From sequence record NC_024146.1: 56,702 nt of DNA, one strand, 5' to 3'. Numbering within the stretch: position 1 is the stretch's first letter; the number at the start of each line of letters is the position of its first letter. Positions 29,114 through 32,879 of the stretch are shown one piece after another. The stretch is from Enterobacteria phage 9g. A model generated the notes under the pieces. That model was not told where the DNA came from and did no database searches. It saw only the letters and a program-made list of their open reading frames with translations. Made by a program: the position numbers and the translations under genes.

Positions 29114-29451
29114 TGGCCAAAGATATCGTTATTCCGAAAATGTATTGCCAGCTTCGTGATACTTTATTACAAAGCGGTTGGATTATTAGTCACACCGATG
29201 TAAATGACACTTATATTGTTCTTATACCACCTGACGGAACAATATCCTGCATTTTGCACTACATGCCCGAAGCAAAGACGGTTTATCCGAACGGGTCGTT
29301 CCTGCTTCGTCTGCGCTCCGATACATGGAAGATCCAGACAGATACCTGTGCAATTGACGAGAATACCAGTAAAGAATTTATTCGCAAGCTAACTCAGCTG
29401 AATAAAATCTACCAGCATGTTAAATTTGATTTGTTTAAGGAAGTGTTCTAA
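29113..29451 (+). CDS. Hypothetical protein
   Basis: 112 aa, start overlaps the upstream stop (TAATG). Confidence 0.55.
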   Translation: MAKDIVIPKMYCQLRDTLLQSGWIISHTDVNDTYIVLIPPDGTISCILHYMPEAKTVYPNGSFLLRLRSDTWKIQTDTCAIDENTSKEFIRKLTQLNKIYQHVKFDLFKEVF

Positions 29452-29891
29452 TGATTACTATCAACGATCCAATCAAGCATAAAACTCAGCAAAGTATAAT
29501 GGCTTGCATTCCCACCTGCCTTGCCATGCTTCTTGACAAAGACCCTAAGCAGGTATATGACGAGTTCACGAAGGATTATATTCGTGGTTTTACTGACGTG
29601 TCGAACTATCTGTATAAGCACGGTGTCTTTGCGCAGCCGCATATCACTGCCGGTATGCACCAGATCCGACCTGGGCGCTTGTATCTTGCGACTGTACCCT
29701 CTTTGCAGTTACCTGGACTTTTCCATCAGATCATTATTGACGCTCGCTTCGGTGATGTTAAGGTATACGACCCATGTAAAGGTCTGCAAGGGAAACAATA
29801 CTATTCCTATGACCACGTTGCAGAGGGTAATGATCTGGCGTATCCTCTGCGGTCTTTCCTGATTGATTACGAAATTATATTACCGGAGTGA
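29451..29891 (+). CDS. Putative papain-like cysteine peptidase (C39-like)
   Basis: 146 aa. N-terminal QQSIMACIPTCLAMLL resembles the C39 Gln/Cys motif (Q...C..CLAM); downstream YDHVAEGND could supply the His/Asp. Call is from motif pattern only. Confidence 0.4.
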   Translation: MITINDPIKHKTQQSIMACIPTCLAMLLDKDPKQVYDEFTKDYIRGFTDVSNYLYKHGVFAQPHITAGMHQIRPGRLYLATVPSLQLPGLFHQIIIDARFGDVKVYDPCKGLQGKQYYSYDHVAEGNDLAYPLRSFLIDYEIILPE

Positions 29892-29894
29892 TTC

Positions 29895-30248
29895 ATGAGC
29901 TTGCAACGTTTTGACAATGCAGAACTCGCGTGTGAATTTGCAAAGCGCAAGTTCGCAAAAACAGGTACGCCGCGATGCGTACACGCGGCTATTGGGCAAA
30001 ATGGGGCAAAGTATTGGTACGTCGGTACAGTAGCTCAGATCAAGCGAAGATTCGCGACTACGCCCGAAATGCGCCGGCTTGGGTCCCCTACACTTATGCG
30101 AAACAGGCAGTTGGATAAAGAGGAAATTTATCAATTTCTTAGGAATTACACTGGTAAGGAGAATAGATTTCAGGTTGCAGCGAAAGAGTTTAATATCGGT
30201 CTTTCCACTGCTTATAAAATTTATCACATGTATGGGCGTTTAATATGA
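29895..30248 (+). CDS. Putative DNA-binding protein (C-terminal HTH-like)
   Basis: 117 aa, GGAG upstream; C-terminal FQVAAKEFNIGLSTAYKIY is HTH-like. Confidence 0.5.
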   Translation: MSLQRFDNAELACEFAKRKFAKTGTPRCVHAAIGQNGAKYWYVGTVAQIKRRFATTPEMRRLGSPTLMRNRQLDKEEIYQFLRNYTGKENRFQVAAKEFNIGLSTAYKIYHMYGRLI

Positions 30249-30460
30249 CTGCAATTGCTTATCGTAATGGTATACTGGCTGTAGATCGTCAGGTTACATG
30301 GGGTAATATTGCAACAACTACAGATAAAGTTCATACTGTCAATATTCCAGGAATTGGGCTTTGTCTTGTCGCAATGTCTGGTAAACTACGTCCTGTAACT
30401 GATATTGTGGATCATCTAAAACTACGGTTCATGGACGTAAAGAACCTTTCTCGGACTTAA
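30245..30460 (+). CDS. Hypothetical protein
   Basis: 71 aa, ATG overlaps the upstream stop (ATGA). Confidence 0.45.
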   Translation: MTAIAYRNGILAVDRQVTWGNIATTTDKVHTVNIPGIGLCLVAMSGKLRPVTDIVDHLKLRFMDVKNLSRT

Positions 30461-30486: not shown

Positions 30487-30738
30487 GTGACGCAGGATCT
30501 TGTCGTATATCCTATCTACGGGGATGGTAAATTAGGTCTACCGGACACTAACGAATTTATTGCGGAAGGTAGCGCGTTTGAGTTCTTGATGGGTGCAATG
30601 GCTGGAGGTTGCACCGCCGAAGAGGCTGTACGACTGGCGTGCGTATATTGCGACAGTTGTGGTCAAGGGGTTAAATTCTATGACGTAGCCTACACTCTTA
30701 AAGTGGCGCAGTGTAAAATCGAGGAGAAACCATTTTGA
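30487..30738 (+). CDS. Hypothetical Cys-rich protein
   Basis: 83 aa from a GTG start with no clear SD; contains CVYCDSCGQ. Confidence 0.35.
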   Translation: MTQDLVVYPIYGDGKLGLPDTNEFIAEGSAFEFLMGAMAGGCTAEEAVRLACVYCDSCGQGVKFYDVAYTLKVAQCKIEEKPF

Positions 30739-30926: not shown

Positions 30927-31150
30927 GCGATCCTACAAATACACAATTAGCCGCTGCAAGAGTGTATATGCGCGGAGCTGCCGCTGAGATTGATGCTTTG
31001 CCACAATTTGAAAAGCATGTACAGCAACTTGAACATAAATTTAAGGCTCTTAAAGATCTAGGGGATACGAAAGGTGCTATAGCCTTTCTTCTTGCTATCC
31101 AATACTTGTCTATGGAGGTTGGTGACAAAGTATGTTCCTTAGAAGAATAA
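30923..31150 (+). CDS. Hypothetical protein
   Basis: 75 aa from a GTG start with GGAGA upstream. Confidence 0.4.
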   Translation: MSDPTNTQLAAARVYMRGAAAEIDALPQFEKHVQQLEHKFKALKDLGDTKGAIAFLLAIQYLSMEVGDKVCSLEE

Positions 31151-31632
31151 TTGGTATTATTGCACCTTGGATACTACTTGTCATAATTGTTATTCTAGCC
31201 TACTGGGCTTATGACAATGCCATACAATCAGCTAGAAAGGAGGGTTTCGATGCCGGTGTGTCGTACCAAAAAGAAACTCAGAAAGCGGTTGATTTCGAGG
31301 AGGAGAAACGAAGAGCACATGAGAAAGACACTATCGAACGTCAGTACAGATCTCGTATTGAATCTTTGCTTGCCGATCTTAATAATTATCGCGCTACTAA
31401 TGACAGGTTGCACAACGAAATCGCAACCGTCCGTAAGTACCTCGGTGACGCTACCGGCCCTCAGCCCGACAGCAAGACAACCGCCCAGATCGCCCGTGTG
31501 CTCACCGAACTGTATTCAGAAAGCGTCACAGAATACGGACAAGTGGCAGAAGAGGCTGAAAAGTATCGTCTTGCCGGCGAGCAGTGCGAACTACAGTACG
31601 ATGCAATGCGAAATCCGCATAAAGAACGATGA
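31132..31632 (+). CDS. i-spanin (Rz-like)
   Basis: 166 aa. N-terminal TM helix IIGIIAPWILLVIIVILAYWAY followed by a charged coiled-coil periplasmic domain; lies upstream of endolysin and holin candidates. Confidence 0.65.
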   Translation: MFLRRIIGIIAPWILLVIIVILAYWAYDNAIQSARKEGFDAGVSYQKETQKAVDFEEEKRRAHEKDTIERQYRSRIESLLADLNNYRATNDRLHNEIATVRKYLGDATGPQPDSKTTAQIARVLTELYSESVTEYGQVAEEAEKYRLAGEQCELQYDAMRNPHKER

Positions 31633-31663
31633 TAAACTGCAAAGTCCTTGCCGGATTGCGTAA
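31319..31663 (+). CDS. o-spanin (Rz1-like lipoprotein), overlapping the i-spanin in the +1 frame
   Basis: Internal ATG at 31319 gives MRKTLSNVSTDLVLNLCLPILIIIALLMTGC... with a signal peptide, lipobox-like LMTGC, and a Pro-rich mature region with Cys; extends 31 nt past the i-spanin stop. Confidence 0.55.
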   Translation: MRKTLSNVSTDLVLNLCLPILIIIALLMTGCTTKSQPSVSTSVTLPALSPTARQPPRSPVCSPNCIQKASQNTDKWQKRLKSIVLPASSANYSTMQCEIRIKNDDKLQSPCRIA

Positions 31664-31754
31664 CTAAACGTTCAATCTTAATCGCACATAATTGATTGTG
31701 TGAGTGTGATAATTCCACTATGCTCTATTCGGTTTAACTGAATGGAGCTTTTTT

Positions 31755-32189
31755 ATGACTGTGCAACCACGAGGCATCCGGAATAATAATCCTGGAAATA
31801 TTCGTTGGGGTGATAACTGGAAAGGTCTTGTTCCAGAAGACAAACGAACTGACCGTTCTTTCTGTCAATTTATCGATGTAAAATACGGCATACGCGCGAT
31901 CGCGCGTATTCTACTAAACTACCGGAACCGCGAAGGGATGAAGCGCGTCGGAAATAAAGGGATTGACACTGTACGGGAGATTATTTCGCGCTGGGCTCCA
32001 CCGATTGAAAATAACACTGAAGCCTATATTCAATCCGTGTCTAAGGCTTGTGGTGTTGGTGCAGAACAGCCGATTTCAGTCACCGATGATAAAATCATGC
32101 TTGCGATCGTGAAAGCGATCATTAAACATGAGAACGGTGTGCAACCTTATTCTGATGAAGTTTTGCTCGCGGGTATCCATATGGCATAG
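31755..32189 (+). CDS. Putative endolysin (assigned by position in the lysis cassette)
   Basis: 144 aa, ATG at 31755 with GGAG upstream; lies between the spanins and the holin. Catalytic family not recognised by eye (contains GIRNNNPGNIR). Confidence 0.4.
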   Translation: MTVQPRGIRNNNPGNIRWGDNWKGLVPEDKRTDRSFCQFIDVKYGIRAIARILLNYRNREGMKRVGNKGIDTVREIISRWAPPIENNTEAYIQSVSKACGVGAEQPISVTDDKIMLAIVKAIIKHENGVQPYSDEVLLAGIHMA

Positions 32190-32202: not shown

Positions 32203-32511
32203 GTGTCGCCGAATTGGGATTGGAATATAGTTTTTATTCTCACTGCCATTGCGATGGTAGGGGGTTCCCTTGGCTACGCTGCAAGAACCCATGATGCTAA
32301 AGAAAGGTTCAGACTTAGTGTCTTCATTCAAGAGGGTACTTTTTCTGCATTCTTTGGTTTCTTGATAGGTGTAATTAACGTGGAACATGGGGTCCCACTG
32401 GGGCTCAGTGGGGCGTTCATAGGTGTGTTATCTTGGTCAGGTTCAAGAACCATGCTGAAGTTTCTACGGAAAAAGACGGAAGTATGTGACCGAGAAAAGG
32501 AAAGAGGTTGA
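32203..32511 (+). CDS. Holin-like membrane protein
   Basis: 102 aa from GTG after AAGAGG. Three hydrophobic segments (IVFILTAIAMVGGSLGYAA; FSAFFGFLIGVI; LGLSGAFIGVLSW) and a charged C-terminal tail. Confidence 0.55.
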   Translation: MSPNWDWNIVFILTAIAMVGGSLGYAARTHDAKERFRLSVFIQEGTFSAFFGFLIGVINVEHGVPLGLSGAFIGVLSWSGSRTMLKFLRKKTEVCDREKERG

Positions 32512-32513
32512 TT

Positions 32514-32750
32514 ATGCGTCACTTTATCAACGATCTTCTTATATTGTGTAAGAAACCGCGATTGCTTTTCATCTATACGATGATTGGACTTGCACAAATT
32601 GGAGTCAGTGCTATCGCCATTGATCAGATGCACAAGAAACACAGGGCAAACCTGCGACCTTCAAAACCACCTGCTTATGTGGTCAACAAGGTTGAACAAA
32701 TCAAACAAGATATCCGGGAGATAACGTACATTCCTAAAGTTGAAATGTAG
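32514..32750 (+). CDS. Small membrane protein (possible holin partner/antiholin)
   Basis: ATG at 32514 (AAAGAGG upstream); one TM segment FIYTMIGLAQIGVSAIAI. Confidence 0.4.
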   Translation: MRHFINDLLILCKKPRLLFIYTMIGLAQIGVSAIAIDQMHKKHRANLRPSKPPAYVVNKVEQIKQDIREITYIPKVEM

Positions 32751-32765
32751 ATTGCTTTATAAGTA

Positions 32766-32804
32766 AAGCCCGCTCCTTGAATTTATATCGAGCGGGCTTT
32801 TTAT
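32766..32804 (+). terminator. Rho-independent terminator after the lysis cassette
   Basis: aagcccgctc(32766-32775) / gagcgggctt(32790-32799), then TTTTT. Confidence 0.6.
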
Positions 32805-32833
32805 TGACATTTGCTATAACCCTTGCAATTAAT
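32804..32833 (+). promoter_or_regulatory. Candidate sigma70 promoter for the packaging/late operon
   Basis: TTGACA 32804-32809, 18-bp spacer, ATTAAT 32828-32833. Weak -10; speculative. Confidence 0.25.
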
Positions 32834-32879
32834 TAGTCCACCGCTTATATTCGTGTCAAGAATCGACAGGAGTAACGTT

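Follow-up and report, generated by a model that had tools for sequence, protein, structure and literature searches.

The stretch of DNA analysed here (the window) consists of the 56,702 nucleotides of Enterobacteria phage 9g (sequence record NC_024146.1). A 2-kb region around the gene under study is 93-96% identical to Nonagvirus siphoviruses (Queuovirinae), namely vB_EcoS_HdK1, JenK1, JenP1/2, BRET, FritzHoffmann (BASEL Bas20) and Salmonella phage SE1, and by this similarity the window is that of a Nonagvirus (9g/JenK1-like) E. coli siphovirus. The gene is part of a cassette with the following features:

31132..31632, + strand: i-spanin (Rz-like), an N-terminal TM helix and, after it, a coiled-coil domain in the periplasm (PF10721 DUF2514, 1.3e-11; phrog_312, 1.5e-41; hydrophobic residues 1-32)
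31319..31663, + strand, +1 frame: o-spanin (Rz1-like lipoprotein; phrog_11621 Rz-like spanin, 2.1e-21), with a signal-like stretch ending in the lipobox-like LLMTG-C
31755..32189, + strand: probable endolysin, a stand-alone PHA02564 / Enc34-type catalytic domain (144 aa, 16.2 kDa, pI 9.4, soluble)
32203..32511, + strand: holin of the LydA type, holin superfamily III (PF16083, 1.1e-7; phrog_785, 2e-26), with hydrophobic segments
32514..32750, + strand: 78-aa protein with a single TM; its gene overlaps the holin stop and is the last one in the cassette (phrog_16688, unknown function, 8.6e-55; '1 TMD' in an HdK1 note)
32766..32805, + strand: intrinsic terminator closing the cassette, GCCCGCTC ... 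GAGCGGGC then TTTTTATT, read from the sequence

The reading frame at 31755-32189 was confirmed on the + strand, with an ATG start at 31755, a stop codon ending at 32189 and 144 encoded residues. Its Shine-Dalgarno (SD) sequence, GGAG (31744-31747), lies 7 nt 5' of the ATG. Homologues of the product number more than 4000 in 90%-identity clusters (top E 1e-89). A profile search of 1.84 billion cluster representatives retrieved 14,078 family members at E<=1e-3, each standing for a 50%-identity cluster, and 8,661 at E<=1e-10. Given these numbers, which are far beyond chance, the ORF is not a chance reading frame. RefSeq and BASEL records already use the name 'endolysin' for the orthologous gene, while HdK1 labels it 'putative virion protein, conserved domain PHA02564'. 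A 2022 paper (PMC8943055) reported the crystal structure of the Enc34 family, its muralytic activity and a proposal for its catalytic triad. Because the family, its fold, its activity and the annotation of this gene are all public, we rate the identification of the endolysin as already known.

The gene is accompanied by an adjacent, co-oriented holin gene and by the i-/o-spanin pair, as in a holin-endolysin-spanin cassette. The initial annotation had proposed an endolysin from the position between spanins and holin; the flanking genes were confirmed, and the phrog_873 and 7Q47 matches described below agree with this proposal. The FritzHoffmann annotation has an i-spanin and an o-spanin at the matching genes, and HdK1 carries a 'putative transcriptional terminator' at the position homologous to 32766-32805. 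The order i-spanin, o-spanin, endolysin, PF16083 holin, small TM ORF, terS, terL is kept in 10 metagenomic relatives, whose endolysins are 58-77% identical to that of the window. In this conserved order the terminator has its place between the small TM ORF and terS. This spanins-endolysin-holin order is the reverse of that in Enc34 (holin, endolysin, spanins). The order of the lambda cassette is likewise opposite. The o-spanin gene overlaps the i-spanin gene and extends 31 nt past its end, and is thus not embedded in it. The 78-aa single-TM protein (32514-32750) is syntenic in all relatives and could be an antiholin or a holin partner.

The 144-aa protein matched phrog_873 'endolysin' in PHROGs (6.4e-63). 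A phmmer search against the PDB identified the Hafnia phage Enc34 endolysin's catalytic domain (7Q47; E 6.7e-31, ~41% identity over residues 2-130), and a further PDB match was to Gp29, the core protein of E1004, at its N-terminus (9VVP; E 3.3e-21). A match to phrog_7182 'tail injection transglycosylase' was also obtained (1.4e-22). Pfam-A returned zero families at E<=1 for this protein and NCBIfam nothing relevant; in both collections, no profile match was found to GH73 PF01832, GH23 SLT PF01464, GH24, GH19, GH25, amidases or M15 peptidases. These searches reproduce the earlier observation that lysozyme, transglycosylase, amidase and M15 motifs do not match. The conclusion drawn from it, that the catalytic family is not recognisable, has been overtaken, in view of the PHA02564 / Enc34-type domain (phrog_873, 7Q47). 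The motif-based reading failed because the family is missing from Pfam and NCBIfam and its members are widely mislabelled. A muralytic family of more than 14,000 clusters at 50% identity is still absent from both resources.

The profile and structure searches that had been proposed as a check placed the family (PHROGs, PDB) and also the fold. The predicted fold is all-helical, has no beta-lobe and is superposable on 7Q47; the classical alpha+beta lysozyme fold of GH73 / GH23, in which a helix before the core helices bears the catalytic Glu, was not found. The catalytic domain of Enc34 consists of six helices with no beta structure (PMC8943055), and the Enc34-type fold is a permuted, beta-lobe-less lysozyme alpha-lobe whose Glu/Trp/Tyr signature is common to GH73 and GH23. 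Glu131, Trp79 and Tyr95 of Enc34 are shared with GH73 (TM0633) and GH23 (phiKZ gp144, MltC) enzymes (PMC8943055). More broadly, GH73 (TM0633, FlgJ) and GH23 (phiKZ gp144, MltC) have a four-helix core and a spatially equivalent catalytic Glu and aromatics in common with the family (PMC8943055). The Enc34 ORF39 catalytic domain (PHA02564) lyses E. coli, P. aeruginosa and H. alvei cells with a permeabilised outer membrane (Cernooka et al. 2022, PMC8943055). Two further papers that name Enc34 (PMC13084259, PMC7996906) contain nothing more on the PHA02564 family, and our literature search found no experimental study of any Nonagvirus endolysin.

Alignment with the PDB entry located the counterparts of the Enc34 active-site residues and the N-terminal family signature:

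31770..31805, + strand: family signature codons, R6-G-I-R-N-N-N-P-G-N-I-R17 (RGIRNNNPGNIR), residues 6-17
31992..31994, + strand: W80 codon (R-W-A-P-P), equivalent to Enc34 Trp79; role from PMC8943055
32025..32027, + strand: Y91 codon, equivalent to Enc34 Tyr95; role from PMC8943055
32130..32132, + strand: E126 codon (H-E-N-G), equivalent to Enc34 Glu131, proposed to be catalytic by superposition on GH73/GH23 enzymes (PMC8943055)

In an alignment of 28 sequences reaching down to 41-45% identity, W80, Y91 and E126 were invariant, as were H125 and G128. The same alignment showed invariance of R6, G7, R9, N10, N12, P13, G14, N15 and I16 in the N-terminal signature, and of D33, F36, F39, G45, R47 and others. 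The window protein does not have the 5-residue KKNGV insertion that follows WAPP in Enc34. No mutagenesis of the Enc34 catalytic Glu was found in the literature search, so the role of this residue is deduced from structure; by analogy, we infer that E126 would be the catalytic residue of the window protein.

Of the 150 best family representatives, 140 carry the N-terminal motif in a relaxed form, and the motif also occurs in the virion protein Gp29. The initial annotation had suggested that this segment may define a different muralytic fold. As a family signature the segment was borne out, and the fold is indeed distinct from those of the classical lysins; the fold is nevertheless related to lysozymes, and to that extent the suggestion did not stand. 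The motif sits within the first 40 residues of the model, which are rich in coil. In a related paper, a 'Loop 1' is counted among the parts of the catalytic groove (PMC9502842). The motif would belong to the N-terminal loop region that lines the groove. The RNNNPGN loop together with D33 may stand in for the missing beta-lobe, giving a second catalytic or substrate-binding element.

No hydrophobic segment was detected in the 144-aa protein (maximal KD19 1.05, no segment above 1.6), compared with a KD19 of 2.9 in the TM of the i-spanin. Its N-terminus, MTVQPRGIRNNN, is polar, and the protein is therefore neither a SAR nor a secreted endolysin. The chain stops at residue 144, as soon as the catalytic domain is complete, and the C-terminal membrane domain of Enc34 and M4Lys is not present. 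With neither this domain nor a signal sequence, it would thus be a soluble, presumably holin-dependent enzyme, and we infer that it needs the holin for reaching the wall. Enc34 ORF39, in contrast, is a 26 kDa protein in which a linker and a C-terminal two-helix membrane domain follow the catalytic domain, and whose expression on its own is toxic; it is this membrane domain, as in M4Lys, that renders the protein toxic and independent of a holin. The PHA02564 catalytic domain is also common to the window protein and M4Lys of Salmonella phage BSPM4. M4Lys lyses cells without a holin by means of its C-terminal TMD, whereas the window enzyme has no TMD and would depend on a holin. The TMD-deleted form of M4Lys degrades purified peptidoglycan, yielding glycosidase-type products (Bai et al. 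2020, PMC7143992).

We classified the best 150 of the 14,078 family representatives by simple hydropathy and length:

catalytic domain with C-terminal TM: 41/150
N-terminal extension, no TM: 29/150
stand-alone soluble, ~140 aa: 23/150
N-terminal TM and domain: 16/150
at least 500 aa: 16/150
C-terminal extension, no TM: 14/150
relaxed motif not found: 10/150
TM at both ends: 1/150

The bare soluble catalytic-domain form is common in the family. The 9g sequence would present this domain as a free soluble enzyme within a canonical holin cassette. Such a soluble form would be a simpler enzybiotic scaffold than the toxic, TMD-bearing Enc34 and M4Lys.

We conclude, with a probability of roughly 88%, that the product of 31755-32189 is the endolysin of the phage and is of the Enc34 type. 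Because it has no signal, SAR or membrane domain, the endolysin would accumulate in folded form in the cytoplasm. The LydA-type holin would then permeabilise the inner membrane and the endolysin would enter the periplasm, its 16 kDa presumably passing through the holin holes. The glycan strand would be bound in the groove formed by the helical bundle and the N-terminal loops, with W80 and Y91 positioning the sugar substrate, and a beta-1,4 glycosidic bond of the peptidoglycan would be cleaved with E126 as general acid. The spanin pair would finally disrupt the outer membrane. This order of release, from cytoplasm through holin and glycan cleavage to spanins, is modelled on established knowledge of holin-endolysin-spanin lysis.

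With regard to bond specificity, the M4Lys products and the resemblance to GH73 lead us to lean slightly towards an N-acetylglucosaminidase (GlcNAc-MurNAc). The nearest reported structural relative of Enc34 is the GH73 glucosaminidase TM0633, and the authors of the Enc34 paper conclude in favour of a glucosaminidase (PMC8943055). An enzyme of the same family and role could, with a lesser likelihood that is still appreciable, have another chemistry, being a lytic transglycosylase, an N-acetylmuramidase (MurNAc-GlcNAc, GH23-like) or a bifunctional glycosidase/endopeptidase. The similarity of the Enc34 fold extends to the GH23 lytic transglycosylases phiKZ gp144 and MltC (PMC8943055), and the phrog_7182 match favours transglycosylase chemistry. 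The M4Lys report can be read in both directions: its text describes an N-acetylglucosaminidase and a possible endopeptidase, the loss of non-reduced GlcNAc being read as glucosaminidase activity, whereas a figure legend gives N-acetylmuramidase activity and D-Glu-mDAP cleavage (PMC7143992). Against a bifunctional enzyme, the Enc34 structure shows no peptidase-like site (PMC8943055).

That the protein is instead a virion-associated ('structural') lysin piercing the wall at infection, and not an endolysin acting at the end of the cycle, appears very improbable. The same domain does occur inside large virion proteins, including Gp29 (9VVP) and proteins of tape-measure, head and tail-injection PHROGs, and proteins of at least 500 aa make up 16 of the 150 best representatives. 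Residues 5-141 of the window protein align with the first 126 residues of Gp29, which share the N-terminal motif and have H-E-T-G as catalytic segment. In Gp29 and in tape-measure/ejection proteins (phrog_2276, phrog_7182, phrog_992) the domain is, however, a module of proteins of ~700-1300 aa, whereas here it is a free enzyme; in the large Gp29-type proteins it presumably serves for wall penetration at entry. A further homologue, P5 of PM2, is an Enc34-like lysin with the same Trp/Tyr/Glu triad (Yutin et al. 2022, PMC9502842), and PM2 P5 and the Vinavirales lysins have a homologous fold and this triad in common with the window protein. P5 is a reported virion protein of tailless membrane-containing phages, whereas the window protein belongs to the lysis cassette of a siphovirus. 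Close homologues are often named 'virion protein', 'structural protein P5' or 'capsid protein', and these misleading names trace to two sources, the provisional CDD label PHA02564 and corticovirus PM2 P5. The label 'virion protein' goes back to the provisional CDD name and not to proteomics. The 9g protein is a stand-alone 144-aa product encoded in the lysis cassette, outside the structural module, and the holin gene is adjacent and co-oriented in every relative examined.

These observations favour the end-of-cycle endolysin, and the searches for other lysins point in the same direction. A profile built from the 28-sequence alignment matched the six-frame translation of the window once, with no second copy of the domain; an extra copy in the tape measure protein was considered and is not present. 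Twenty other proteins of the window, among them the tape measure, tail tip and fibre, more structural proteins and the products of ten early-region ORFs, showed no match to any muralytic family. No other annotated lysin exists in the complete FritzHoffmann genome or in 50 of the 60 kb of the SE1 record. The discovery of another gene as the true endolysin had been named beforehand, together with a lack of muralytic activity, as the result that would overturn the assignment, and no other lysin was found in the window.

Cysteine peptidases of the CHAP or NlpC/P60 type do occur among endolysins. It is nonetheless scarcely credible that the true endolysin is another gene such as the papain-like cysteine peptidase ORF at 29451-29891, with 31755-32189 serving another role: the invariant Q13/C19/H92/D107 and the confident papain-like model of that ORF, and the existence of endolysins of this peptidase type, are outweighed by CHAP-type Gsp amidase matches at a probability of only 0.13-0.20, by a position 1.9 kb upstream of the lysis cassette and by the homology of the 31755-32189 product to an experimentally active endolysin (7Q47).

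In its own right, the 146-aa ORF at 29451-29891 yielded a papain-like model with a pLDDT of 93, and the four residues are invariant among its homologues, which form 19 database clusters only. Its product had no Pfam, NCBIfam or PDB sequence match. The best fold matches were C39 double-glycine leader peptidases (PCAT1, LahT) and Josephin, and not CHAP or NlpC/P60 enzymes, and it was rejected as an endolysin. According to this model, the ORF would encode a cysteine peptidase that has so far escaped annotation and is limited to this phage group.

Two elements were identified immediately 5' of the endolysin gene:

31696..31724, + strand: promoter-like element, TTGTGT (31696-31701), 17-nt spacer, TATGCT (31719-31724), predicted function
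31722..31754, + strand: hairpin GCTCTATTCGGT-TTA-ACTGAATGGAGC then TTTTTT, the 3' arm containing the endolysin GGAG; flagged as terminator-like

The hairpin has a 12 bp stem (31722-31748) that is followed by U6 and then by the ATG, and a free energy of about -16.4 kcal/mol when folded alone. The region has a z-score of -3.0 relative to shuffled sequences, and no Rfam family was found over it. With MAFFT and RNAalifold the 5' arms were misaligned, and the resulting consensus of 6 pairs was meaningless. Conservation was instead judged from hairpins detected sequence by sequence, from pairing probabilities and from an alignment in which the -10 hexamer served as anchor. By per-sequence detection, a hairpin sequestering the SD was kept in 10 diverged relatives with different stem sequences. 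Variants include TGCTCCTTGT/ACAAGGAGCA and CATTCCTCCTG/CAGGAGGAATG, and in TGCCCCTTGT/ACAGGGGGCA both the SD and the anti-SD are changed. The predicted pairing probability of the SD region was 0.87 for 11 endolysin starts versus 0.53 for 94 other gene starts of the same loci (Mann-Whitney p 5e-7, a value that overstates independence as the loci are related). The hairpin looks like a terminator in the Nonagvirus clade because a U-run follows it. The U-run is absent in 4 of the 10 relatives keeping the hairpin; since these retain the SD-sequestering stem, a function as terminator only was set aside.

The pattern of the promoter-like element, TTGnnn-N17/18-TAnnnT, was present in 13/13 diverged loci, with the -10 hexamer ending 27-35 nt 5' of the endolysin ATG, and TTG and TA...T were the only invariant intergenic columns across these loci. 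The same pattern at the same distance preceded 11/93 other genes, nine of the 11 being terS. A generic promoter scan left the element unflagged because it scores only 7/12 consensus positions. Transcription is predicted to start ~7 nt 3' of the -10 hexamer, at about 31731, and so within the 5' arm of the hairpin or past it. RNAs initiated here would consequently be without the inhibitory strand, which those reading through from the spanin genes would include. A promoter-like element of the same type, TTGCAA-17-TATATT (32823-32851), lies between the cassette terminator and terS, and in nine relatives the terS element is at a constant distance from that gene.

We tentatively propose, at somewhat less than even odds, that these elements act as a gate of the T4 gene e type, in which spanin read-through transcripts would be terminated or translationally silent and only transcripts starting at ~31731 would express the endolysin and holin. 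As judged from the stem sequences, such a gate would be conserved by covariation across Queuovirinae-like siphoviruses. The T4 lysozyme gene e (McPheeters et al. 1986, as reviewed in PMC3014915) is described as having a hairpin that sequesters the SD on read-through transcripts and a promoter in the DNA of the 5' arm. The predicted arrangement in the window shares both elements with gene e, and differs from it in that the promoter-like element is sigma-70-like (TTGnnn-17-TAnnnT), whereas gene e uses a T4 late promoter. The Nonagvirus hairpin is also followed by a U-run, unlike that of T4, and the arrangement proposed here is a computational prediction. A literature search found neither a transcription study of a Nonagvirus nor a description of such a gate in these phages, and the promoter-in-hairpin arrangement appears undescribed for this phage group. 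This upstream arrangement, for which T4 gene e is the classical precedent, is the only part of the analysis that is possibly new, and it offers a testable model for keeping endolysin synthesis off until late.

Several irregularities were noted in the records of related phages and in the neighbouring sequence. In the original GenBank records of JenK1 and JenP, the 'lysin' label is apparently on the i-spanin gene, and the HdK1 record notes its spanin ORF as 'similar to N-terminal part of lysin [JenK1]'. Several records of relatives give the real endolysin as a hypothetical, virion, structural or capsid protein. Upstream of the cassette, two ORFs (30245-30460 and 30487-30738) occupy the place of one gene for an HslV-family peptidase (phrog_1040). 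They result from a 1-nt deletion near 30418, where the window reads CATCT-AAAAC and FritzHoffmann, which has a single 164-aa CDS, reads CATCTCAAAAC; the split gene is either a frameshift pseudogene or the result of a sequencing error.
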